Positions 52,478-64,000 of a stretch of 64,000 nucleotides of DNA are shown piece by piece. The notes below the pieces were generated by a model. That model had not been told where the DNA came from, made no database searches, and saw only the letters and a program-made list of their open reading frames with translations. The position numbers and the translations under genes are program-made. Each line of letters starts with the position of its first letter. The stretch's first letter is position 1. This DNA is from Bacillota bacterium (GTDB lineage Bacteria; Bacillota; Clostridia; Acetivibrionales; DTU013), in contig JAEXNT010000011.1 in NCBI GenBank assembly GCA_023439545.1, positions 139,659 to 203,658 on the forward strand, given 5' to 3'.

Positions 52478-52532
52478 TAGATTATTAATAATACAGATTA
52501 TTTCTTTTGCTTCGTTTTCTAAACTGTTATAA

Positions 52533-52805
52533 TCACCGATTGACTGTATTAGGCAAGCCTAGATTGCTCTCCATTGCAGCCTCGAGAACATTTATTCGGT
52601 TCCGAAGTTTTCCTGCTTCAATATCAGATACATTCCCGTTACCGGCCAGATCGCTTTCCGTGATCTCCCCTGCTATGAGCCGGGTCAAATCACCGAGAGC
52701 CTGCTGATCGTTATCATATACATTAAGGACCTTAACCAACCTGTGACAATTCTTGCCGGCGTTAACGATGCTATATTTATCTGGACTTTTACTTAGTATA
52801 TTCAA
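52533..52805 (-). CDS. Hypothetical protein, 90 aa
   Basis: TTG start 10 nt after GGGAGG. No family recognised. Confidence 0.45.
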   Translation of the reverse strand: MNILSKSPDKYSIVNAGKNCHRLVKVLNVYDNDQQALGDLTRLIAGEITESDLAGNGNVSDIEAGKLRNRINVLEAAMESNLGLPNTVNR

Positions 52806-52864
52806 TTATATTCGCCTCCCTCGCTATGATTTTATTCTACCATAATCAAGAAGAAAGCCCGAAG

Positions 52865-53032
52865 TTAATCGGGCAAAGTTTGTTTATGGGTAAAAGTAAT
52901 ATACTCTCGACTGATGATATGCTTGAAATAATGAGTATTCCCTTTGCTCCCCATATACATATACTGTTCGCGTTCAGCGTCTGTCTTAAAGCATTTTTCA
53001 AACACCGCGTCGGTATTATCCACAAAGTACAT
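52865..53032 (-). CDS. Hypothetical small protein (MYFVDNTDAVFEK...), 55 aa
   Basis: ATG 53032 lies 4 nt after the stop of the upstream small gene, suggesting translational coupling. Confidence 0.45.
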   Translation of the reverse strand: MYFVDNTDAVFEKCFKTDAEREQYMYMGSKGNTHYFKHIISREYITFTHKQTLPD

Positions 53033-53036
53033 TTCA

Positions 53037-53246
53037 TCACTCTTTTGTATTCCTTCCAATGAACAGGATCCAGTTGCCGAACCACCACGAGAGGTAATAC
53101 CTTGTACGTCCGAATGTCTTTATCAGCCATTCCTTGTGCGCTCGCTTTTTCGCTTTCTTCTTGTCTTTTGCCTTTTTAATCTTATTCCTGTTTTTGTAGC
53201 GGTCCGCCGCCATCCACATAAGTTTTTTCGTATTGAGTTTACTCAA
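53037..53246 (-). CDS. Hypothetical small basic protein with hydrophobic Trp-rich C-terminus, 69 aa
   Basis: TTG start 10 nt after GGAGGGG. Lys/Arg-rich N-terminal half. Confidence 0.4.
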   Translation of the reverse strand: MSKLNTKKLMWMAADRYKNRNKIKKAKDKKKAKKRAHKEWLIKTFGRTRYYLSWWFGNWILFIGRNTKE

Positions 53247-53292
53247 TGTTTTTCATCCCCTCCGTATAATTTTATTTTTGCTTTAAAAAAGC

Positions 53293-53844
53293 CTAGCGGA
53301 AGAGGGTATCCAACCCGGACATATCCAGACCCACAATTTTAAATTTAACGCCTATTTGGGGCAATTTTAGCGGCCTATCAGTGCAAATGATTACAATAGG
53401 TCGGACACCGAATACAGGCAGAAAGTCCATTTTATATTTGTCAAAGTCAAACTGATTGCTGAGATGTACCTCGACCAAAACGGGATAAACCACACCTTTA
53501 TTTCGTATATATGTGAGAGCATCCGGCCGGATATGATCGATTGTAAATTCATTATGCCATTCCAGGATCTCATATATCTGTTTCATAGTTGCATACAGTT
53601 CGGCGCGGATAAGATCATGGTGCAGCTGCTGCAGAAGAGATTTACGCTCCAGATAGTAGGCAAAATCATTATTAATCGTACTCCGGGTACGCTTGACAAA
53701 TCCCTGTTCCGTCAATTTCTGCAACCGGCTCCGGCTATTGCGCGTGATAGTCTCTGCAAAATAAAGTCGGTGAATTTGTGAAGAAGTGGCTACGTGGAAT
53801 TCCTCAAGGAAATTTAAAATATTCTGATCTCGCGTTGTTATCAT
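53293..53844 (-). CDS. Replication-relaxation family protein
   Basis: MITTRDQNILNFLEEFHVATSSQIHRLYF is a Replic_Relax-type N-terminal wHTH. ATGA overlap with the ftsK-like stop. Confidence 0.75.
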   Translation of the reverse strand: MITTRDQNILNFLEEFHVATSSQIHRLYFAETITRNSRSRLQKLTEQGFVKRTRSTINNDFAYYLERKSLLQQLHHDLIRAELYATMKQIYEILEWHNEFTIDHIRPDALTYIRNKGVVYPVLVEVHLSNQFDFDKYKMDFLPVFGVRPIVIICTDRPLKLPQIGVKFKIVGLDMSGLDTLFR

Positions 53845-55082
53845 TTCATCACCTTCTTCAAATACGGATTGATACACTTGCCACGCAATACCTTCATTTT
53901 GGCACGTTTTTCAGATTGGATTTCCTCTGTGGTTTTAAAGGCATTATGCTTTATCAAGATCGATCGTACGTCGTCTGGCTCAATATAAAGGCACTGGACT
54001 TCCTTTATTTCACCGTTGTATTTTATCAGACAGCGGCCCTTATTCTTTATCTGCTCTGCTCCGGCGACGTTTAGTATGACTTCACTGTCCACGTCTGTAA
54101 CGACTTTAAAGGCTAGGCGTGTAGGCATGCAACCTTTAGTACTTCCTGAGATAATTTTTATATCAGGTCTTTGCATGGATACAAGATATAATAAGCCCAC
54201 TTTTCTATCCAGAGCGACACGGACGCGGAATTTATCGAGCAATCCTTCGCTATCGGATATCCGGGAAAACTCGTCTATGATAATAACCTTATAGGGCAAT
54301 GCCTTGCTGGGGTAAAACTTATTCCACACGGCTAGATTTTGAACAAAGCGCTTTTTACGTACGCTGGTAAATAGCTTCAGCCTCCTGTCACTTTCCTGCT
54401 CCATTTCGTCAAGCAACTGTCCGAAGTCCTCCGGTTTCTCACCATATGACCGGACCTTTTTGCAGTCTTGGAAAATACCCAGTTCGACACCCTGGAAGTC
54501 AATCAGGTGCAGATCAATATTATGCCTGCTCAAAATCAGTGACAATATGATCGTTCGTAGGAAGGAGGACTTGCCGGACTTTGGTTCCCCGGCTACGATG
54601 GTTTGTATAGCATCGTCGATGTCGAAATAAAACTTGCCTTCATGAGTATATCCAATAAATACCTCTGTGGGATCCTCGCAGTCCTCGAATTCATATTTGT
54701 AATTCGCCCCGAGGTTCATCTGTGTCAGCTTCATTACAAGGTTTTTATTGAATCCATATTCCACCTTGCAGTTCAAAGCCTGCTCTATTTCCTGCTGCCG
54801 CTGCTCAAAATGCTTCTGCGATATCCCTTCGGGCATATGTATAACAAGGGTATCTTTATCATGCTTTATTACGAGCGGTATCTTATCATCACAAGATTTT
54901 ATCCCGCACTTACGGAACAGTGTTTCAAACCTGTTTTCATGGAGCAGAGCCAATTCGATTCCTGTTATCAAGGCCCCTCCCGCAAGCATCGCAAGAGTAG
55001 TTACTCCCGGCATAAGTATTTGACCTATGCCGCCTATACCCATCAGTATAAGCCCGCCGCCTGTCTTTCCATATCTATCCAT
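53841..55082 (-). CDS. FtsK/SpoIIIE-family DNA translocase (membrane anchored)
   Basis: Walker A GEPKSGKSS, Walker B VIIIDEF, N-terminal TM helices. ATG 55082 lies 6 nt after GGAGG. Confidence 0.88.
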   Translation of the reverse strand: MDRYGKTGGGLILMGIGGIGQILMPGVTTLAMLAGGALITGIELALLHENRFETLFRKCGIKSCDDKIPLVIKHDKDTLVIHMPEGISQKHFEQRQQEIEQALNCKVEYGFNKNLVMKLTQMNLGANYKYEFEDCEDPTEVFIGYTHEGKFYFDIDDAIQTIVAGEPKSGKSSFLRTIILSLILSRHNIDLHLIDFQGVELGIFQDCKKVRSYGEKPEDFGQLLDEMEQESDRRLKLFTSVRKKRFVQNLAVWNKFYPSKALPYKVIIIDEFSRISDSEGLLDKFRVRVALDRKVGLLYLVSMQRPDIKIISGSTKGCMPTRLAFKVVTDVDSEVILNVAGAEQIKNKGRCLIKYNGEIKEVQCLYIEPDDVRSILIKHNAFKTTEEIQSEKRAKMKVLRGKCINPYLKKVMK

Positions 55083-55103
55083 CACACACCTCCGTCCGCG
55101 CCC

Positions 55104-55132
55104 CCGCCTGCTCCACCCTGCTCCGCAGGCGG
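55104..55132. promoter_or_regulatory. GC-rich inverted repeat in the ftsK-like 5' leader (candidate oriT or regulatory hairpin)
   Basis: ccgcctgc-N13-gcaggcgg sits inside an ~80-nt GC-rich patch in otherwise AT-rich DNA. Confidence 0.35.
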
Positions 55133-55223
55133 CACTCCGTGGCTCCCATGAACTTGCTTTTTGCAATGTTTAGTAAAATTACCGCTTGGAAGTCTTATAG
55201 ACTTGCATATCCGTAAAGCCGTT

Positions 55224-55259
55224 TGGTATAGGGAATGGTATATGGTTTGGTACTGGTAT
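55224..55259. repeat. Cluster of five TGGT(A/T)(T/C) direct repeats (iteron-like)
   Basis: Copies at 55224, 55236, 55243, 55248 and 55254, read directly. Confidence 0.75.
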
Positions 55260-55351
55260 ATGTATATGGAACATAAAAGAAATGTTGCCTGTACGGTAGA
55301 GAATATCTAAAACCGATTTATTTAATAGATTTGTTGTTGATAAAATAATTT

Positions 55352-55379
55352 AAAAAAAGACCTGGAGATTAATCCAGGT
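55352..55379 (-). terminator. Intrinsic terminator overlapping the XRE gene stop
   Basis: acctgga-N6-tccaggt followed on the minus strand by cUUUUUUU. Confidence 0.75.
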
Positions 55380-55563
55380 AGAATATTTTTTTTACATCTT
55401 TGTTAAGCTTAAAGGCCATTTTTAAAGCCACTTCTAGGCTGGGCTGAATAGAATGCTCATATCGGTTATACTGCCTAAAATCTATTTCTAGAAAGCTTGC
55501 GAACTCTTTTTGATTCATCATATATTCTTTCATCCGGATCTCTTTGAGCCGATTCTGGACCAT
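55369..55563 (-). CDS. XRE-family HTH protein
   Basis: LKEIRMKEYMMNQKEFASFLEIDFRQYNRYE is an HTH_3 pattern. Confidence 0.8.
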   Translation of the reverse strand: MVQNRLKEIRMKEYMMNQKEFASFLEIDFRQYNRYEHSIQPSLEVALKMAFKLNKDVKKIFYLD

Positions 55564-55622
55564 AATAATCACCAAACTATATGTTCTCTATTTCCCGTAT
55601 AATACCTTTTTCTATCCGGAAA

Positions 55623-55934
55623 CTATTTTATCCCCAAAGCTCGTCTATGTTGTTCCTTTTCATGCCATTTTAGAAACTGCTCTTTTGGGATACATGCCCT
55701 TCTGCCCCATTTTAATTTGGTAAATTCCGGGTTGTTTATAATTTTGTAAGCTCTCGTTATTCCGCAATATAATAAGGATTTTATATCTTCGACAGTAATC
55801 ATACTGGGAAGCATGTCTTCTGTTATTTTCTTTTTATCATTTGGATTTTGTTTGCATTGTAAAGCGTTTAGGCTGCTTAAATGTTCATTTAACATTCTGA
55901 TCTCCGCCAATAACTGTTCAAGTATTCCTTCCAT
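55623..55934 (-). CDS. DNA-binding protein with C-terminal excisionase/MerR-type HTH
   Basis: ITVEDIKSLLYCGITRAYKIINNPEF...IPKEQFLKW. Strong RBS. Confidence 0.6.
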   Translation of the reverse strand: MEGILEQLLAEIRMLNEHLSSLNALQCKQNPNDKKKITEDMLPSMITVEDIKSLLYCGITRAYKIINNPEFTKLKWGRRACIPKEQFLKWHEKEQHRRALGIK

Positions 55935-56124
55935 AAAGCACCTCTTCCTTTCAATAATATTATATACAATTCCTTAACGGGGGTATTTTACCATACATAT
56001 TAAGCATAAAAAAGGAAGACGGTTTTTCGTCTCCCTTTAAGGCTAGATTCAATTGTATATTATATCCTGTCTTTTGAAAGTCTATCAAGAGCCTTATCAA
56101 TACCGAATTTGGTATCGCTATAGC

Positions 56125-56143
56125 TTTTGTCGCTCAACGAAAG
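56125..56143. promoter_or_regulatory. Conserved element motif copy 2 (ttttgtcgctcaacgaaag)
   Basis: Imperfect palindrome flanked by TGGTAT copies at 56110 and 56148. Confidence 0.45.
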
Positions 56144-56273
56144 ATCATGGTATAGGTTATCCATTCTTTTCTCAGTAAGCAGATCCAAAATAGCATTTAA
56201 AGCACTGGTTGCTTACATAATTTCCTCAATCCCCCTTTAAATTGTACAGATAAGCTTCGCCGGCCGTTCTCTT

Positions 56274-56453
56274 TTAGTCGATCAATTTGTATACCGGGAC
56301 ACACATTACCTTTGCTATTGCTTTTAGAGTTTTCATGGAAGGCTTACTTTTCCCGGATTCAAGTTCACACATATGACTCGGTGAAATGCCAGCAGAGTGA
56401 GCAATATCCTTTTGAGAAATGCGGCTTGCAAGCCTATGACTTTTGAGCTTCGT
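56274..56453 (-). CDS. XRE-family HTH protein
   Basis: LKSHRLASRISQKDIAHSAGISPSHMCELESGKSKPS. TTG 56453 lies 8 nt after AAGGGGG. Confidence 0.75.
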   Translation of the reverse strand, partial: TKLKSHRLASRISQKDIAHSAGISPSHMCELESGKSKPSMKTLKAIAKVMCVPVYKLID

Positions 56454-56760
56454 CAAATACTTTGCCCCCTTTGCAATCGGTATCATTTTTAATGACGTCT
56501 AAAAGAAACCTTATACCATCAGAAAATGCTTTTTTATAACACACCTTCATAGCAATTATCTCTTTGAGGTTATATTCATGATCGATTCTATCGCGTAAAG
56601 AACCGCATGTATGGCCTTTCGGATCACTCGCTTCAACTTCCTTCAAAAGGATTTCAATTTCTTCAAGTTCCTTAACATATTCGGGATTTCTATAAGACTG
56701 ACCATAAATTTCTTCGTCAAGCCATTCTTCGCATTCCTCTAATAAAGCATCTAATAGCAT
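56434..56760 (-). CDS. Hypothetical acidic protein, 108 aa
   Basis: AGGAGGTG lies 5 nt before the ATG. No family recognised. Confidence 0.55.
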   Translation of the reverse strand: MLLDALLEECEEWLDEEIYGQSYRNPEYVKELEEIEILLKEVEASDPKGHTCGSLRDRIDHEYNLKEIIAMKVCYKKAFSDGIRFLLDVIKNDTDCKGGKVFDEAQKS

Positions 56761-56849
56761 ATAAACACCTCCTAAGCATACTCCGCTTTACTTCAGGCAG
56801 TATAAATATTTACTGTCAGCTTTATCATGAGTAAATATAGAATCATGGT

Positions 56850-57005
56850 CTATTCATTTGGCATCATTCTTACAAGCTTTAAATTACGCTCCTGGATAGC
56901 TTGCTGAATAAGCTCCCTTTCCTCTTCAACACCTGATGTATTTAACTTTGAGTAAAGGATCTGCAGCTCAGACTCAATCTTTTCAATTTCGAATTGTTCA
57001 AGCAA
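56850..57005 (-). CDS. Candidate small helical protein, 51 aa
   Basis: TTG start 7 nt after AGGAGG. Not in the ORF track because it is under 60 aa. Heptad-like sequence. Confidence 0.35.
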   Translation of the reverse strand: MLEQFEIEKIESELQILYSKLNTSGVEEERELIQQAIQERNLKLVRMMPNE

Positions 57006-57138
57006 ATAGATAGCCTCCTTCCTATACCCTTGAAGGCAGGCCGCAGCAATGCTATAATATTCATAAGGCAGCCTTTATCAAGGTTGTTTTGTGTGCCGGT
57101 ATCCTCTAAGCTTTGGACGGTGAAGAGGTTGCCGGCTT

Positions 57139-57312
57139 TCATTTGACTGATTTTGTACATGATTCTATAAACTCCTTTAGCTGCTCATCTGTAATTCTCC
57201 AATGCTTCCCTATCTTCACCCCTTCTAATTTTCCTGCTTTTAAATACTTTCTTAAGGTTATTACAGGAATTTTTATTTTTTCCGATAATTCTTCAAGAGT
57301 ATAGAATTCCAA
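57139..57312 (-). CDS. Excisionase-family (HTH_17) DNA-binding protein
   Basis: YTLEELSEKIKIPVITLRKYLKAGKLEGVKIGKHWRI. TTG 57312 lies 8 nt after GGAGG. Confidence 0.8.
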   Translation of the reverse strand: MEFYTLEELSEKIKIPVITLRKYLKAGKLEGVKIGKHWRITDEQLKEFIESCTKSVK

Positions 57313-57333
57313 ATCATTCACCTCCTACCAATT

Positions 57334-57362
57334 ATTGTATAATGCATTTTCTGATATGTCAA
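57334..57362 (-). promoter_or_regulatory. Sigma-A promoter for the xis-like gene
   Basis: On the minus strand: TTGACA, 17 nt spacer, TACAAT. Confidence 0.6.
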
Positions 57363-57396
57363 TATCTATCAATAATTTTAGTTACCTGTCATTACC

Positions 57397-57414
57397 TTTC
57401 GTCGCTCGACGAAA
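57397..57414. promoter_or_regulatory. Conserved element motif copy 1: palindrome tttcgtc-gctc-gacgaaa
   Basis: Perfect 7-bp arms, about 35 bp upstream of the -35 element. Confidence 0.5.
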
Positions 57415-57503
57415 TTTTACTTATTTGCCACGCTGGATTACTTTTATTTATATCATGAAAAAAGCACTCGGTTAAGAGTGCTTAATGAGTATGTTCTTAT
57501 ATA

Positions 57504-57785
57504 CTAATCTTCATTTAGGTATTTATCTCTAAGAGTCCCAAGTAGTATATTTCCTCTTGCATTATTGTCATTTCCATCATAAACTATAAAATCATATCCA
57601 GGATATTGTTTTTGTAATTTTTCTTTTAAGTAAGAAACATTAGCAGAATTTTTAGTCATTTTAATCGCTTTGTAGTTTTCTGACAAGACTACTTCGCTTC
57701 TGACGTTTTTTCCGTCTTTAATAAAGTGAACCTTAACGCCTTCTACCTTGAAAATTGTTTTTTCAATATATCCAATTTTTGGCAT
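57504..57785 (-). CDS. Hypothetical protein, 93 aa
   Basis: ATG 57785 lies 6 nt after AAGGGGTG. No family recognised. Confidence 0.5.
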   Translation of the reverse strand: MPKIGYIEKTIFKVEGVKVHFIKDGKNVRSEVVLSENYKAIKMTKNSANVSYLKEKLQKQYPGYDFIVYDGNDNNARGNILLGTLRDKYLNED

Positions 57786-58384
57786 ACAAAGCACCCCTTT
57801 TTTATTGCATTATATACCATAATATAGCAATAAGCAATTAATAATCGACATTTGATGTTAGTTGCAGTAAAACTAAGCGCTATCCAATTACCGCATTAAG
57901 TCTGTAAAAATTTATTATAAGCATTCTGTGTAATATTTTGTGTAGGGTTGAAACAAATAGTACAGACAGTAAAAGACCTTCCAGCGTTCAACCTGAAAGG
58001 TCTTTTCAAAAATCATATCGCTAAACGATTCTTTGAAATGAAAGAAGCTATTATATTTATATTTGTTTCCCCCAAAAAGTACGTGAGATTCGTACTCCTA
58101 ATCATGGGTTAGAAAATACATTTCAACAGAAAATCTTTGCCTGGTTTCATTCACTACCCGGCCCCAGGTTCTTGATGCACTTTAATGATCCATCGAGAGA
58201 TCAAAGATATTCCCCTACTTTTAGTTTATCATGTTAAAAATTCCATAGAACCTTCAGGTAATTGAATCTCTGAAGGTACACCCTTTTTATCATCTGGGAG
58301 TAAATTATTTCAATAAAATTTTGTTGAACAATTATGTAAAATATTATAAAATGGCAATATCTTTATAGCAAAGGAGACATCAAT

Positions 58385-58942
58385 ATGAATCTTAGTCAGA
58401 TGAAAGAAATTGAAGACTTAAAAGCTCAATTAAGTGCTTCAAGAGATGAATATAGTAAAATATACCAACCTAAAAAGCAAAAGGCTTATAATGAAGTAGT
58501 AAATGGGTTTAAGACATATTTTAAAAATCAAGGTTTCGAAATTCAGGAGACCTCATCATTTGTATATGCAATTTATCGTGATATTAAATTTTCATTAAGC
58601 TTACCGGGAACTGATACAAGCTTTGTTGGCGCTGCTTCAGTATTCAATTTATCTGAGGAGCATAACAAAATAGATAAGCATTCGATAATGATTATTCAAA
58701 AAGGACATAGAACCGGAATACATATTACTTCATCTATATCTCCAAAAACTGAAGATGAAAAATATAAACAAGAAGTTGAAAGTCTAAAAAATAGCATTGA
58801 AGATTCCAAAAAAAACATAGAAGCTATGAAAGATGATGTACTGGTTTTTGGATTAAGGATAGATAATAATAGATCAGGCAGAGAATATGAACAATTTAAT
58901 TCTATGAATGACCTTATTGAACATTTATTTGAATCAAAATAA
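58385..58942 (+). CDS. Hypothetical coiled-coil protein, 185 aa; the only plus-strand gene in the element
   Basis: AAAGGAG RBS. Very AT-rich. An upstream hairpin with T run lies at about 58250-58292. Confidence 0.6.
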   Translation: MNLSQMKEIEDLKAQLSASRDEYSKIYQPKKQKAYNEVVNGFKTYFKNQGFEIQETSSFVYAIYRDIKFSLSLPGTDTSFVGAASVFNLSEEHNKIDKHSIMIIQKGHRTGIHITSSISPKTEDEKYKQEVESLKNSIEDSKKNIEAMKDDVLVFGLRIDNNRSGREYEQFNSMNDLIEHLFESK

Positions 58943-59419
58943 TTACTACCTATAGTTTGACTGGTCAAATCCAGCAAACGCTTATATATCAACAATTTGA
59001 TCGTATTTTGCAATGTAGTGTTTTCGGTGCAAAAGTATTCTGTTTTGTCTCGTTTTCATGCAGCTATAGGAGTATATATAATCTGTTCTTATGGTACTTG
59101 GTATCTATATAAGTATTAGTTATAATCAGTAAGTCAGCTCGTTGAATAAAGTCCTTATACCCCGAACCCTACAGATTGTTGGCCTACAGCTGGTATATAC
59201 AGGTCAGCAAATTACGGCATGGTATAGACAAAAAGCAAGACTGCACATAATTAAATTTATGGGTAGTCTGGGAATATGAGGCAAAAGATACATTTCGTGT
59301 AATCCATATCCCTTCATACCCGCTATGCATTGGTATTACAGTGTTTCGGGCTTTGCTCATTTTTTATAGGTGATTGTGCTTTTGATGCGTTTTGCTATAG
59401 GATACTATATATTGTGTTT

Positions 59420-59512
59420 ACCCTGCCCGAGATGCCACCGGAACCGGTTTTTGTCGGTTGCCCAGACCCCCGGGGGGCGGGTCGCCTGGCGCGCGGGAGA
59501 GTTACCTCGCGT
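59420..59512. other. GC-rich structured island in an AT-rich non-coding region
   Basis: Roughly 93 nt of GC-rich sequence with several local stems (aaccg/cggtt, gaccc/gggtc, cgcggg/ctcgcg). No credible ORF. Confidence 0.5.
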
Positions 59513-59640
59513 AAAAATGTAGACCATCTAGGCCTCAATTTTTGATTAGCAATCCTATGAAAAATCCTATTAAAAATAAGAAAATGCCATGAAAGCATTA
59601 ATTATAGGCGCTTTCAAGTAAGTACATATCAAAAAAATTA

Positions 59641-59904
59641 TCATCGTTTAAAATTAGTTTCAATGCAATTAATTCCTTTTCCAGAAATTCTATATCTCTG
59701 CTTCGTTTCCCTGACATATCCGTTTCGAACGAGAATCCCTAGCTTTTTCCTAAACTCTTTTTCAGTCATATCAAAATGCGTACTATTATAAAGTGTCTCA
59801 GCCGAGTACGTCCTGTCATAAAGCTGGTAAAGAGTACGTAAAATATAGCCTTCTGAGCTTAATTGAGTAAAATGCTTAATTGCATATTTGTATTTAGTTT
59901 TCAT
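59641..59904 (-). CDS. Small winged-helix DNA-binding protein, 87 aa
   Basis: LGILVRNGYVRETKQRYRISGKG is a wing-like C-terminus. Its own RBS is preceded by the inverted repeat caacaat-N20-attgttg. Confidence 0.55.
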   Translation of the reverse strand: MKTKYKYAIKHFTQLSSEGYILRTLYQLYDRTYSAETLYNSTHFDMTEKEFRKKLGILVRNGYVRETKQRYRISGKGINCIETNFKR

Positions 59905-59960
59905 ACTATTTTCCTCACAACAATATATAAATACATTTTATAACATTGTTGAGAAAGTAG

Positions 59961-59999
59961 TAAAAATGCACAAGGAAGCTTATAACAAAGCTTCCCTGT
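59961..59999 (-). terminator. Intrinsic terminator closing the ArpU-like-led operon
   Basis: 12-bp stem (59970-59981 / 59988-59999) followed on the minus strand by gcaUUUUU. Confidence 0.75.
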
Positions 60000-60013
60000 A
60001 TTATGAGTTACTT

Positions 60014-60997
60014 TTACCCGAATTCTGCAATAACGTTAGAAAGCCCTCTTACATCCGCATCGGTATAGTCGACAATGCCTCTGAAATAAGTCGTACAGTC
60101 GATGTACAGGCCACATCCACCGCCGCTCCAAACCTCCGTTCCTGGGCCATGTCCAGCTTCAGCAAAAAACTTCACTGTCAACGCGTTTCCATGCCAACCA
60201 TTCGAGTACCAGCCGCCAATAGTTATACCGCTTTCAAGCACGGGATCACTGCCTGGATTGACATTGAACATACCACCGTTGAATGAACCGGAATAAACAC
60301 CGTTTTGGTTTATATACGTCGCGTAACCGCTGTTCCTCCATGCCGCTAAAGAAGCGCCCAGCGGGACATACAACTTCTCGTTGAAGGTTTTAGGCTCAGT
60401 TTTGTCCTTGATCAGACGGTGATCAATCAAAGCAATGCCCCGCCTGTCAACCTGGAAAACTGTCATGAAGCCACCAACGGCTTCACACGCCACAGATTCA
60501 TAAGCTTGCAGGAAAAGTTGTTCTAGCGGCATGGTGTTAATATTTTGTTCGATAAAATGTCCGACCTCGGAAGTCGCCATTCCCTCCACCCGCGCTCCAT
60601 CATACCAGAACATGACAGCAAAATCATCATTCGAATTCATGCTGCAGCACACTGGAGCATTACGGGTGTTGTCATAATAGAATATCGCTAGATTGCATAT
60701 AAATGCATTTGCAGGATCAGCGATGTTATTGCCCTGGCAGAAAGCCTTTACTTTGCTTCTGGCTATCCCCTGAAGAGCTTCAATCGTATCGTTGTCCTGA
60801 TGCGCAAATTCAAAAATTACTGCTGCTCCTACCGCTTCAATGCCTGCCGAAAATATCAAACGGCTATGCACGACATGGAGCTTTTGGCCGTCGTCGCCGA
60901 GTCTGCGAAATTCACCATTGGCACACAATGACCTACGGGAATCGGAGGCCACGAATAGTGGGCCTGTATTTGAATAAATGGAAATACAACAACTCAT
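60014..60997 (-). CDS. Two-domain protein: N-terminal proteasome-beta/HslV-like Ntn-hydrolase fold (Cys in place of Thr1) plus a Gly/Trp-rich C-terminal domain
   Basis: By-eye alignment of CCISIYSNTGPLFVASDSRRS...QKL...SAGIEAVGAAV to [21 protein letters not shown]...RKV...GIAGTAAVAV. Not verified by a profile search. Confidence 0.5.
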   Translation of the reverse strand: MSCCISIYSNTGPLFVASDSRRSLCANGEFRRLGDDGQKLHVVHSRLIFSAGIEAVGAAVIFEFAHQDNDTIEALQGIARSKVKAFCQGNNIADPANAFICNLAIFYYDNTRNAPVCCSMNSNDDFAVMFWYDGARVEGMATSEVGHFIEQNINTMPLEQLFLQAYESVACEAVGGFMTVFQVDRRGIALIDHRLIKDKTEPKTFNEKLYVPLGASLAAWRNSGYATYINQNGVYSGSFNGGMFNVNPGSDPVLESGITIGGWYSNGWHGNALTVKFFAEAGHGPGTEVWSGGGCGLYIDCTTYFRGIVDYTDADVRGLSNVIAEFG

Positions 60998-61104
60998 TAA
61001 ATCATCCCTTTCTTTTTAAAAACATCTTTGCTTAAAAGCCGCACGGATAGCCCTCGCAGGGAATCCATGTTCCTGATAGCGCTGCATCAAGCCATACCTG
61101 ACCA

Positions 61105-61512
61105 TTAATTTAACCCTACACTAAGCATGTCTATGAACTGCGAGAACTTGCCGTCCGGTGCAGGAAGCTTCTCTAATTTTTCGCGCTGCTTGCCTAAGAA
61201 TTCGGCAAATTCTACAATCCAGTCCTGCAACAGACTTACAGGCGCGCTCTGAAAAAACCTTTCATCATAACCATAACCATTGACCAGGCTGTGAAAAGGG
61301 GTTTTTGTTGCTTCAAAATTCCCATTGTGCATCAGTTTACAGACATATTTGTCAACGCCGCCATTATCTCTTATGGTCTCGGGGATTTCCTCAAAGCTAC
61401 TGAGGATAGTGGCTTTATCGGTTTTCTGAATGCGTTCTGCTATATCCCAGTCCATAGAACGATAGCCGGTTGTCAAAAGCTCAGTCAGTTCATCTTTGTC
61501 AAGCGCGTTCAT
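61105..61512 (-). CDS. Hypothetical protein, 135 aa
   Basis: Start moved to ATG 61512 (GGAGG 8 nt upstream). C-terminal DWIVEFAEFL resembles DWFEEFAKML of the 139-aa protein. Confidence 0.55.
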   Translation of the reverse strand: MNALDKDELTELLTTGYRSMDWDIAERIQKTDKATILSSFEEIPETIRDNGGVDKYVCKLMHNGNFEATKTPFHSLVNGYGYDERFFQSAPVSLLQDWIVEFAEFLGKQREKLEKLPAPDGKFSQFIDMLSVGLN

Positions 61513-61535
61513 CTGCTCGGCCTCCTGCATCCTAC

Positions 61536-62969
61536 TTATTCCAACTTATAGCTTATTTCCGTCCAATCATGCTCCGGATCCTGCGCGACGTTGCCCACGG
61601 AAAGCCAGTCCTGATATGTGGGACCCCCGATAATACAGGCAACTCCGTTACGTTTACGGAACATTTCCTCAAGGAATAGATTGCTTTTTACCTGCCAGAA
61701 TCTTTGAGGATTGCAGTAATATGCAAAATGTCCGCCACGTTCGCTTTTATAACCCCCATAGACGATTGTGATTTTGCTTCCTCCTTCAGTTTTTTTGCAG
61801 ACAGCACCATCCTCTACTAGCCTTTCAAGTACGCGTGGACTAAGTCCTTCGATATCAAGCCGCCCAGTGTTCCGACATATTTTTAGCTTTATTCCTGGTG
61901 CCGAAGTCGGCTTCGCTTCTGTCGGTGCCCGCCAATTATCCGCAAATTTCATTATTTCAGCAGTTTGCATATCGGTAAACATGAAGCGCATTTGAAGTTC
62001 AGGAAAACTTGCTCCGAGAGCCTTTTTCCCCGCGGCGAGGGCCGATTCAATGATTTTCTGTCTCTCAAAGGGGTCTTCTACCTTCTTTTGAGGTTCTGTC
62101 TTGGGTGCGGGGACTGTGCCGGGGGTGAAGACCTTCCTGCGGTCTGACTTTTTCACCATGGTCAGCAATCCTACATTCGGACTATAAGTGGCTATAACGG
62201 GTTTTGCAGGATCTATATTCTTCAAGTCAGTTACTACCATAAATTCTCCATGGTCATTCTCTACAGTATCCCTAGCAGACATTGACATGACGCCAGCGCC
62301 GGGATAAGCTCCATCAAAGACAATACTATTTTCCCAAAGTGCGGCTGGTGGGTATGCTTTTATCCAGCATAGAGAATCCTTTTCATTCCCGGCAGTATCC
62401 TTGACCTTGTAGGTTTGGCCGGCATAGTGTTCGCAGTCGCGACTTGTGTACTCCTCACCACACACAGAACATATGCCCCGATTAAAACTGAAACCTATAG
62501 ATGTATCAAATAGCGTCCCGGCCTCGATACCTGCAATAAGGTCATCTGTATTTATACCGTCGATTTCCACGCCGCGTTTAATGTAAGTGTCGCTCAAAAG
62601 AGAAACCGTTTCGCCTTCCTCAGTAGGTTCTCCAAAACATGCATCAAAGGTTCTTCCATAGGGGATAGCAGGTTTCGGACGACCGCCTAAACCAAACAGC
62701 CCTCCCGAATGCCAGGAGTGGTCTATCAGGAAGGATACGCCTTTTCTTGCATCCATAGCGAACACATCAAGCGTCTCTCTCATTAGCTGGACATACCGCT
62801 CGGGGATTATCATATCTCCAGTTAATTTTGATGGGAACACGAATACTTCATCGGCGGTCAGCCTACGTTTCGCAAGCTTATTGATTTTTTCAAGTTGTGC
62901 TGTGGTCGGTACACCGAATTCACCCAATTCAATCATCCTTTCCTTTTGGGCGTTCGCCCAAATCTTCAT
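61536..62969 (-). CDS. Prohead-serine-protease-like protein (HK97/XkdF type) with Cys/His insertion, linker and extra C-terminal domain
   Basis: LIDHS (His), DTSIGF (Ser) and LWENSIVFDGAYPGAGV follow the Peptidase_S78-type order. CSVC...CEH...C cluster. Start uncertain (ATG 62969 or 62936). Confidence 0.6.
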   Translation of the reverse strand: MKIWANAQKERMIELGEFGVPTTAQLEKINKLAKRRLTADEVFVFPSKLTGDMIIPERYVQLMRETLDVFAMDARKGVSFLIDHSWHSGGLFGLGGRPKPAIPYGRTFDACFGEPTEEGETVSLLSDTYIKRGVEIDGINTDDLIAGIEAGTLFDTSIGFSFNRGICSVCGEEYTSRDCEHYAGQTYKVKDTAGNEKDSLCWIKAYPPAALWENSIVFDGAYPGAGVMSMSARDTVENDHGEFMVVTDLKNIDPAKPVIATYSPNVGLLTMVKKSDRRKVFTPGTVPAPKTEPQKKVEDPFERQKIIESALAAGKKALGASFPELQMRFMFTDMQTAEIMKFADNWRAPTEAKPTSAPGIKLKICRNTGRLDIEGLSPRVLERLVEDGAVCKKTEGGSKITIVYGGYKSERGGHFAYYCNPQRFWQVKSNLFLEEMFRKRNGVACIIGGPTYQDWLSVGNVAQDPEHDWTEISYKLE

Positions 62970-62984
62970 TTATTTTGCTTTGCT

Positions 62985-63296
62985 TTACTTTCCCGAGTAT
63001 TCCATATCATGCCACTCACGCAGCCCATGCCTATCAAGTTCGTTGGTAGAGAACATGTCATAGATTGTGCAATTAAGTTGGCCGTTTGGCCATATCCCTG
63101 GATAGTCCTGGTTAAACAGAGTACACAGTGTAGGGTTGGGTGTTACGGAGAACGTCGCTAGATTTGCATAGTACTTTACCCCATTTCCGGCCTCGCCTCG
63201 GGCTATAATACCTTCATTTACGAATTCTTGAAGCTGCGTCTCGCTCAAACCTCCAGTATCCAGCCTGCCGGATCTTTTACATATTCTGAAAATCAT
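62985..63296 (-). CDS. Hypothetical protein, 103 aa, sharing a motif with the C-terminal domain of the 477-aa protein
   Basis: ICKRSGRLDTGGLSETQLQEFVNEGII compared with ICRNTGRLDIEGLSPRVLERLVEDGAV. Confidence 0.6.
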   Translation of the reverse strand: MIFRICKRSGRLDTGGLSETQLQEFVNEGIIARGEAGNGVKYYANLATFSVTPNPTLCTLFNQDYPGIWPNGQLNCTIYDMFSTNELDRHGLREWHDMEYSGK

Positions 63297-63712
63297 AACG
63301 CTTTCTCGCTTTCAGTTAACATTTTTGCAAACTCTTCAAACCAATCACAAAAACTTTCCGTGTCCTTTTCAAAAATTAAAATGAGAATATCATCAGCCGG
63401 CTTGACTAAATCGTTGTCAAATGTCCTTCCCTTGATTAATTCGTCGATGCTTTTGTTGTCTCTATTATCTCTGTAAAACTCTAGAAAGCCCTGAAAAATC
63501 AGTGAAAACGGTACATCATCAAAGTCGCCATAGTTCACCATATCCGTGAAATATCTATGGTTATGGTTGCCTAAGAACATAATTGATAGATCCTCTGGCT
63601 CAATAACACAATTATCCTTGAATTTCCTGATCTCTTCTGGGGTCATAGAAACAGCGTGCGGCAACCGGGCCAGTTTCATCTCTTTGAATTGTTTGTCCAT
63701 CTTATTTCTCAT
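63293..63712 (-). CDS. Hypothetical protein, 139 aa
   Basis: ATGA overlap with the downstream gene. No family recognised. Confidence 0.55.
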   Translation of the reverse strand: MRNKMDKQFKEMKLARLPHAVSMTPEEIRKFKDNCVIEPEDLSIMFLGNHNHRYFTDMVNYGDFDDVPFSLIFQGFLEFYRDNRDNKSIDELIKGRTFDNDLVKPADDILILIFEKDTESFCDWFEEFAKMLTESEKAL

Positions 63713-64000
63713 CCTCTCTCATCCATTCCAACATCGATTTTATCTTTCTGCAGTCTTCTAAATTGATCTGGACTATAGTGATCATTTTTTGTAATGCTCT
63801 ATCGCGGCAACAATTTAAGGCTCGTGGGCTACATTTCAGTTCCTGGGCTATTACTTTCCACGTCTTATAGTGGAAATATTTCTGTTCAATCAGTAAACGC
63901 TCTTGCCGGTGTAATGCTCTGACTCCGATATCGATTTTCATGATTATAGCACTGACCAGCAAAATATCTTGCTGTATTTTTTCAATTTCTTCTGTAATCC
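63702..64000 (-). CDS. Sigma-70 region-4 / ArpU-like transcriptional regulator (5' end outside window)
   Basis: ERLLIEQKYFHYKTWKVIAQELKCSPRALNCCRDRALQKM is a region-4 HTH pattern. The frame stays open to the window edge. Confidence 0.6.
   Translation of the reverse strand, partial: ITEEIEKIQQDILLVSAIIMKIDIGVRALHRQERLLIEQKYFHYKTWKVIAQELKCSPRALNCCRDRALQKMITIVQINLEDCRKIKSMLEWMREDEK

Follow-up and report, generated by a model that had tools for sequence, protein, structure and literature searches.

Here we describe the product of one gene found in a 64,000-nucleotide stretch of DNA from an uncultured Clostridia bacterium (contig JAEXNT010000011.1), referred to below as the window. The gene is complete, lies on the minus strand at positions 60014-60997 (stop codon 60014-60016) and, translated from ATG to stop, gives a protein of 327 aa, MSCCISIYSNTGPLFVASDSRRS...GQKLHVV...SAGIEAVGAAVIFEF...GVYSGSFNGGMFNV...VDYTDADVRGLSNVIAEFG. 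Two modules can be distinguished in it: an N-terminal domain, aa 1-205 (60383-60997, minus), which very probably is an N-terminal nucleophile (Ntn) domain of the proteasome beta type, and a C-terminal module, aa 215-327 (60017-60355, minus), related in sequence to the tips of phage fibres, hence the name proteasome-fibre gene used throughout. The open reading frame (ORF) quoted in an initial annotation of this DNA is real, its translation matching ours exactly; the strand, not given there, is added here. An identical 327-aa protein has been called on 5 public contigs. Read from the sequence, a Shine-Dalgarno-like GAAAGGGATG (61003-61012, minus) puts AAAGGGA about 8 nt 5' of the ATG, and an intrinsic-terminator-like hairpin with a 13-bp stem, 5 GC pairs and a T run stands directly 3' of the stop codon (60000-59969, minus).

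The query sequence alone gave no match in Pfam (E up to 10), PHROG or the sequences of the Protein Data Bank (PDB), and a word-indexed homologue search returned relatives of aa 215-327 only. An exhaustive HMMER search of 1.84 billion representatives collected 118 proteins, namely the query, 104 homologues (counted at 50% clustering) covering aa 1 to about 205, and 13 covering aa 215-327 only; the sole end-to-end homologue in this set was P0018 (348 aa, 40% identity). The match to the N-terminal domain begins at or near residue 1 of nearly all 104 proteins, and three homologues with an apparent N-terminal extension still contain an internal MSLC or MSL start, so that they look like cases of mis-called start codons. 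The near absence of a propeptide, expected in the initial annotation, is thus borne out, as the domain begins at residue 1. The C-termini of these homologues vary, from about 200 to 1084 aa, and many family members carry long fibre-shaft repeats (up to 1084 aa).

The AlphaFold2 (AF2) model, built on a 106-sequence alignment, exceeds a predicted local distance difference test score (pLDDT) of 90 in most of aa 1-205 and falls to 59 around aa 131-140. The order of strands and helices, including helices H54-65 and H72-89, is that expected for the alpha-beta-beta-alpha Ntn sandwich, the fold which the initial annotation had predicted. In the Foldseek comparison with PDB the top 50 matches were all 20S beta subunits (E 1.3e-8 to 5.6e-7, probability 1.00, TM(target) 0.53-0.68), and a profile of 53 N-domains gave 19 PDB matches at E up to 10, all of them proteasome beta, the best being 8adn_L (E 5.6e-7, profile positions 5-196). 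Pfam PF00227 matches 4 of 106 family members, with a best E of 6.4e-5; judged from these sequence scores, homology to PF00227 appears clear at the level of the family, the single query sequence falling below threshold. Weaker scores were obtained in BFVD for phage-encoded stand-alone Ntn/proteasome-like proteins (Foldseek E 1e-6 to 1e-1), and a scan of the genome collection with the five closest N-domains yielded no confirmed locus. With the AF2 model, Foldseek and the family profile in agreement, we are highly confident in classifying the N-terminal 205 or so residues as a proteasome-family Ntn domain, and the proteasome-beta/HslV-type assignment made earlier is supported.

The catalytic residues were read from an alignment of 93 family N-domains, to which all residue counts refer. 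Met1, the start codon, is found in 91/93 and Ser2 in 92/93, the sole exception being a Thr in P0115. Asp19, Lys39, Gly52 and Gly175 are present in all 93 sequences, Ser/Thr20 and Gly176 in 92 each and Glu172 in 88, and the catalytic set is kept in sequences sharing just 20-30% identity. In a MAFFT alignment of 53 sequences (A2) the only invariant columns are M1, S2, D19, K39, G52, G175 and G176. Set against mature yeast beta1 (PRE3, 1fnt_H), the profile places its positions 5-110 on chain residues 4-105; when the register was derived a second time, the coordinates came out equal. Read in this way, position 2 of the family falls on Thr1, the invariant Asp on Asp17, and the invariant Lys on Lys33 after a 4-residue insertion; the glycine of the SG/AG motif is Gly47, the GG pair belongs to the SGG strand motif, and Cys4 falls on residue 3.

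On the minus strand of the window, the predicted N-terminal nucleophile Ser2 (codon AGT, 60992-60994), counterpart of proteasome Thr1 by conservation and register, is followed by the codons of Asp19 (60941-60943), aligned with D17 of PRE3 and of human beta5, Lys39 (60881-60883), aligned with K33, and Gly52 (60842-60844), which lines up with the SGS/AGG motif and corresponds to Gly47 of the oxyanion hole. Further downstream, Glu172-x-x-Gly175-Gly176 (60470-60484) corresponds to the D166/S169-G170-G171 region of the proteasome, its GG being aligned with the GG of human beta5. The earlier equations of Asp19 with Asp17, of Lys39 (in QKL) with Lys33 beyond a 4-residue insertion, and of the SAG glycine with the Gly47 motif are all supported by invariance and register.

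What did not stand is the nucleophile. The initial annotation saw here a Cys-Ntn hydrolase, in which Cys3 or Cys4 would become N-terminal after the loss of Met-Ser(-Cys). The query does contain the Cys3-Cys4 pair, the spacing from Cys3 to Asp19 equals that from Thr1 to Asp17, and Cys4 is the majority residue of its column (62/93). The spacing of 17, however, is due to an extra Gly12 in the first hairpin, a one-residue insertion found in just 4 of the 93, namely the query and three of its close relatives. Moreover, Cys3 occurs in only 6/93, Cys4 gives way to V, A, S, L, T, Y or G in the remaining 31 with the Ser2, Asp19, Lys39 and Gly52 columns holding firm, neither cysteine lies on Thr1 in the profile register, and a route for removing Met-Ser is not evident. 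We regard a cysteine nucleophile as highly improbable. So of the residues expected to be conserved among homologues, Asp19 and Lys39 were and the two cysteines were not. Ser is a standard methionine aminopeptidase substrate as the P1' residue, therefore the mature protein should begin with Ser, and Ser2, exposed by the removal of Met1, is the predicted nucleophile. Connectase also uses Ser-1 or Thr-1 as nucleophile (PMC7980362), the triad of the proteasome family is given as Thr1/Ser1-Asp17-Lys33, and the other proteasome-like homologues are stated to be devoid of propeptides (PMC8665760).

Position 21 is Arg in 57/93 and Ala in 35/93, and it co-varies with position 4 (49 C/R, 23 non-C/A, 12 C/A and 8 non-C/R). 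In terms of sequence, this co-variation defines two subtypes rather than a nucleophile. Tentatively, and on the basis of about a dozen loci, members located in tail modules are of the non-Cys/Ala21 subtype and those of satellite-like elements of the Cys4/Arg21 subtype.

The C-terminal module, aa 215-327, is 50-60% identical to the C-termini of 29 other proteins whose N-terminal regions differ. One of these tip homologues carries PF06605 Prophage_tail together with tail-protein PHROGs (phrog_21973), others match 'tail protein' PHROGs, and P0003 belongs to a phage structural module in which it is preceded by a capsid gene, an SU10 adaptor and a tail APC gene. The proposal that the C-terminal part, now about 113 aa, is a phage fibre or tail tip agrees well with this identity to tail-protein C-termini.

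The initial annotation knew of no described homologue fused to such a domain; one had in fact been listed in 2021 by Fuchs, Alva and Lupas (PMC8665760). Their Firmicute Cluster 4 (FC4) comprises Firmicute-restricted proteasome homologues with a C-terminal domain 'similar to phage tail proteins'; its representative is WP_076223917.1. For the cluster no model was shown, the authors doubting its correctness, and no genomic context or function was given (PMC8665760). All features described for FC4 are present here, that is, occurrence in Firmicutes only (the Clostridia host of the window, relatives in Bacillus solitudinis, Paenibacillus alvei and a Psychrobacillus phage), no propeptide, a Thr1/Ser1-Asp17-Lys33 core and a tail-like C-terminal domain. 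The protein is a further member of this kind, listed but never characterised, an identity based on the published description and not on sequence clustering; WP_076223917.1 was not among the members of the 10 family clusters looked up. Beyond that description, our analysis contributes the assignment of Ser as nucleophile, an N-domain model of high confidence, the division into two subtypes and the association with satellite-like elements, some of them capsid-forming.

Among other proteasome relatives the 20S beta subunits (PF00227) are the closest, with the best structural and profile matches and with the triad, the oxyanion glycine and the C-terminal GG strand motif all in register. The protein differs from them by Ser in place of Thr, the lack of a propeptide, the 4-residue insertion before Lys, an identity of 8-18% and the fused fibre tip. 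HslV of E. coli is a stand-alone protein of about 175 aa with the partner HslU, and its Thr1 is exposed simply by Met1 removal. It resembles our protein as a bacterial proteasome homologue whose nucleophile is freed by Met1 loss, as is predicted for Ser2; an identity with HslV was rejected given Ser2 instead of Thr, the fused 327-aa architecture and no HslU-like gene nearby, and the family profile scored only 3 bits against the E. coli HslV sequence. The archaeal, monomeric connectase shares Ser-1/Thr-1 without a propeptide and offers an earlier example of an Ntn domain that becomes covalently linked through its own N-terminus, its free N-terminal amine joining the chemistry to form an amide-linked enzyme-substrate adduct (PMC7980362). 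In connectase, helices H1 and H2 are missing and a two-helix insertion is found at S3/S4 (PMC8665760). Our protein is not a connectase, since H1 and H2 are both present in its model (H54-65 and H72-89) and the insertion, located before Lys39, is of 4 residues only; it also differs in not being archaeal and in lacking a known KDPGA-type substrate. By analogy, connectase chemistry is possible as a working model. Stand-alone phage homologues (PPH, AAH; Vibrio phage phi 3 A0A0B5H8V9, Caulobacter phage CcrColossus 'Ntn hydrolase') have the phage-encoded proteasome-like fold in common with our protein, but are of about 140-220 aa, come mostly from phages of Proteobacteria and Actinobacteria and possess no fibre module.

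The gene is carried by an integrated mobile element, which occupies approximately 52500-64000 of the window and continues about 5 kb past its end to a tyrosine integrase. Within the window the element has helix-turn-helix (HTH) regulators, an excisionase-like HTH_17 gene and an FtsK/SpoIIIE plus Replic_Relax pair; beyond it, on the same side as the integrase, there are a primase Zn-ribbon gene and an AAA_25/DnaB-like gene. Other genes of the window encode HelD, a PASTA kinase, PriA and RNase J, the last being 94% identical to the RNase J of a Clostridia MAG. Capsid, terminase or tail genes were not recognised in the island, and att direct repeats and a tRNA were not found either, which leaves its extent approximate. 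Upstream of the proteasome-fibre gene lie co-oriented ORFs of the same putative late operon (61105-64000, minus), in the order: an ArpU/sigma-like activator that runs past the window end (phrog_248 and phrog_36 transcriptional activator), then ORFs of 139, 103, 477 and 141 aa. The proteasome-fibre gene is the last of the set and the terminator comes next. Neither an AAA+ HslU-like gene nor an alpha-type partner or other ATPase gene was found near it. Judged from its genes (integrase, HTH regulators, primase Zn-ribbon, AAA_25/DnaB-like gene and ArpU-like activator), the element looks like a phage satellite, although the FtsK/Replic_Relax module inside or beside it and the absence of recognised borders speak against this.

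Similar surroundings were met in the relatives (loci given by L numbers), most of which reside in small integrase/primase, Mu-like or capsid-forming satellite-like elements and only a few in true tail modules. L003 is a related island, having the integrase, a 92-aa gene, the activator and the proteasome-fibre gene in common with the window island; both islands also have a primase, and in neither were structural genes recognised. L005 combines an integrase and two Peptidase_S78 genes with the family member, L008 and L011 are archaeo-eukaryotic primase (AEP) elements, and in L012, a mini Mu-like element, the family member accompanies MuA, MuB, Mor and a 221-aa gene. L095, an IMG/VR contig of 14.3 kb, encodes a portal, an S78 protease, an HK97 capsid, small connector-sized ORFs, TerL and the family member, with no tail genes; a head-tail adaptor-like ORF between TerL and the family member was identified by eye only. 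The 18-kb contig L101 has an SU10 capsid, a portal and the family member. In the Bacillus solitudinis prophage L009 the gene is located upstream of the terminase; L102 and L103 have it among large unknown, NERD and ankyrin genes. Tail modules are represented by L006 (Paenibacillus alvei), with scaffold, SU10 capsid, PhageMin_Tail and a 237-aa gene followed by the family member, and by Psychrobacillus phage Perkons, whose ORF185 (881 aa, starting MSSLLVLQ...SDTATS) is annotated as 'putative tail fiber protein' and comes after the tape measure and tail genes; the Perkons paper makes no mention of ORF185. An all-against-all BLAST of 9 loci revealed no conserved upstream partner.

The layout of L095 is that of phage-inducible chromosomal islands that form capsids (cf-PICIs), which have genes for capsid, portal, protease, connectors and terminase and none for a tail; an island-encoded fibre is not mentioned in the cf-PICI literature examined (bioRxiv 10.1101/2022.09.08.507074). 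A fibre gene of its own is known from the Streptomyces satellite MiniFlayer, where the fibre binds the neck of the helper and no enzyme domain has been reported (PMC10690885).

Our interpretation is based on what the analysis shows, namely the fold, the conserved equivalents of the catalytic residues, the homology of the tip and the surroundings of the genes. From these, the balance tips slightly towards a particle-associated receptor-binding fibre with a catalytically active proximal domain. That the protein is a particle-associated fibre at all we hold a shade more firmly, while naming any single substrate would be an unlikely guess. The gene would encode a two-module protein of a phage or satellite late operon. 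After translation, methionine aminopeptidase would remove Met1 and leave Ser2 as the N-terminal nucleophile, which would work with Asp19 and Lys39 (the Thr1/Asp17/Lys33 equivalents) and the Gly52 oxyanion hole. The tip, aa 215-327, would most likely bind a cell-surface receptor; the shuffling of tip modules between these proteins and true fibres, at 50-60% identity, speaks for selection on host binding. In tail fibres the N-terminal region is normally the part attached to the particle. The Ntn domain would form the particle-proximal end, because there are two modules only and it stands in place of the N-terminal region of the tip homologues. Catalysis would most likely have a protein as its target, a partner in the virion or else a protein of the envelope or S-layer, since hydrolysis or transfer of peptide bonds in polypeptides is what the proteasome family does; it would serve to cleave or to dock, not for bulk degradation. 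In this way the protein would supply satellite-like elements, within the particle, with an adsorption device of their own.

Several observations speak against such a role. The window gene and most relatives are outside tail modules: a position within a tail morphogenesis module is seen for Perkons ORF185 and L006 but not for the window gene, L009 has its copy upstream of the terminase, and the copies of L008, L102 and L103 are among defence-like or unknown genes. In a tblastn search with three N-domains, whose sensitivity is limited, Perkons was the one match among 50,697 deposited phage genomes. The AF2 model of the C-terminal module has a pLDDT of 50-72, and the label of fibre tip comes from homology and not from a fold. 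The arrangement of an N-terminal enzyme and a C-terminal cell-binding module would also suit a Gram-positive endolysin, and proteasome-type rings of 6 or 7 subunits would mismatch a trimeric fibre. Several proteasome homologues may not form rings (PMC8665760).

The endolysin layout leads to the reading that the tip targets a soluble N-terminal peptidase to the envelope, the enzyme being free, lysin-like or bacteriocin-like, and released at lysis instead of residing in the particle; peptidoglycan stem peptides, the S-layer or another surface protein would be its candidate targets. The order of catalytic and binding parts and the size of 327 aa fit Gram-positive endolysins, and this reading also gains from the gene being the last of the operon before the terminator, from a Cu_amine_oxidN1-type secreted or membrane neighbour in 6 loci and from the absence of tail genes in most contexts. 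The long shaft repeats of many members, up to 1084 aa, do not suit it, nor do the Perkons and L006 genes inside a tail module and the tip homologues in structural modules, and we know of no proteasome-family enzyme that cuts peptidoglycan. On the whole we find a free enzyme of this type rather unlikely. The opposite simplification, in which the proteasome fold is a catalytically dead scaffold for attachment or oligomerisation, has a model in the proteasome itself, where the alpha subunits and several beta subunits are inactive scaffolds, and the corresponding part of a fibre is normally a structural anchor. Nevertheless, Asp19, Lys39 and Gly52 are invariant, Ser2 and the GG motif nearly so at 20-30% identity, and an N-terminal extension was never acquired; an invariant triad with a fixed N-terminus fits the demands of an Ntn active site, not those of a scaffold, which makes a dead domain improbable.

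As one specific form of activity, the domain could dock in a connectase-like, single-turnover manner, Ser1 attacking one particular peptide bond of a virion protein so that the fibre ends covalently joined to the particle. The virion target would be the helper tail, the neck or a connector of the satellite itself; transfer of the acyl group to the free amine at the N-terminus would follow, and SCCISIYSNTGPLFVASDSR would become N-terminally extended by foreign sequence. Docking of this kind would explain the extreme N-terminal position of the domain, the invariant triad and the presence of a sole tail-type gene in capsid-forming elements such as L095, and if true it would let small satellites whose replication modules differ widely equip a hijacked or tail-less particle with a host-recognition device of their own. 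It is in our view a long shot. Somewhat less credit still is given to interference or defence, where a decoy fibre would enter or bind the tail of a competing or helper phage and damage it proteolytically. Carriage by satellite-like islands, and the location of some relatives beside AbiH, NERD and other conflict-type genes, would agree with it, but the sharing of tip modules with true fibres points to selection on host binding, and the members within real tail modules do not fit a decoy.

Returning to the preferred particle-associated fibre, its significance lies in the place where the activity would be exerted. Known proteasome homologues are cytoplasmic self-compartmentalising proteases, in one case a protein ligase. 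A family member with an intact predicted active site on the end of a phage fibre, encoded mainly in satellite-like elements, would instead act at or on the virus particle. If active, it would constitute a new class of virion-associated enzymes for Gram-positive envelopes, a new way of fibre attachment, or a tool by which satellites set their own host range, and with a functional result the FC4 cluster of 2021 would for the first time be placed in a functional context.

Some further observations concern the neighbourhood of the gene. In six loci a protein with a signal peptide or transmembrane (TM) segment directly adjoins the proteasome-fibre gene, on either strand (L006:11552-12115, L011:7624-8178, L012:9425-10006, L095:11327-11863, L102:11546-12430 and L103:11434-12039). 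It is of the Cu_amine_oxidN1 type by Pfam in 4 loci and by sequence similarity in the other two, with a coiled coil in several; the L006 and L011 proteins are 36% identical, and the window gene is without such a neighbour. A precedent for a receptor-masking or immunity partner is Llp of phage T5, encoded beside pb5, and by analogy the Cu_amine_oxidN1-type neighbour could be such a partner, or part of a lysis cassette. Directly upstream of the L006 family member, a 237-aa gene (L006:9291-10004) encodes a protein which starts MTMITAVSGRGFALITGDR...K39...AG53 in a Thr1/Asp17/Lys/Gly pattern, has a weak Pfam Proteasome match (E 0.25) and no PDB sequence match; from this pattern it may be a second, Thr-type proteasome-like paralogue beside the fibre gene. 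Perkons ORF186 (L007:8188-8985) and L010:244-1371, each located immediately upstream of a family member of the tail-module type, have their N-terminal 125 aa in common and show DUF7487, DUF559 and MTES_1575 features. Considered as a shared structural partner, this gene was rejected as homing-endonuclease-like, and by their sequences both copies look like homing endonucleases inserted beside the fibre gene.

In the mobile element itself, the FtsK/SpoIIIE plus Replic_Relax pair, typical of conjugative or mobilisable elements, is found at 53293-55166 of the window and at L011:12131-13832, the two FtsK proteins being 22% identical; it adjoins the carrier both in the window and in L011, an unrelated AEP-primase element. 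Outside the window, at L001:6136-6185 (approximately window coordinate 64800-64860), at least 4 overlapping copies of a TAGTC-based repeat with 9-bp spacing are located within the AAA_25/DnaB-like gene and look, by their sequence, like an iteron-type origin. Downstream of the operon, the AT-rich intergenic region contains a GC-rich patch of about 100 nt (59420-59520), for which Rfam had no family at gathering score and folding gave no signal (z-scores +0.7 and -0.5).

The 477-aa neighbour (61536-62969, minus) belongs to an uncharacterised family with at least 424 homologues, 50-70% identical over the N-terminal 56%, in which His84-Ser85-Trp86, Ser157 and a Cys167/Cys170/Cys179/His181 cluster are invariant. 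It has no Pfam match at E up to 10, its AF2 model (pLDDT 68) gave no PDB fold match at E 0.001 or better, and against PDB sequences there was just a weak unrelated match to a putative chorismate mutase (E 0.002). An S78-like prohead protease was considered as a candidate in view of its DHSW and TSIGF motifs and of the S78 genes upstream of the family member in L005, but was not supported; the protein has no BLAST similarity to the L005 S78 protein or to a 471-aa protein of L009. Residues 362-396 (LKICRNTGRLDIEGLSPRVLERLVEDG) resemble the N-terminus of the adjacent 103-aa ORF, with 37% identity over 35 aa and a pairwise E of 2e-6, so that a small repeated module is present in the two ORFs, at 61782-61886 and 63186-63290 (minus).

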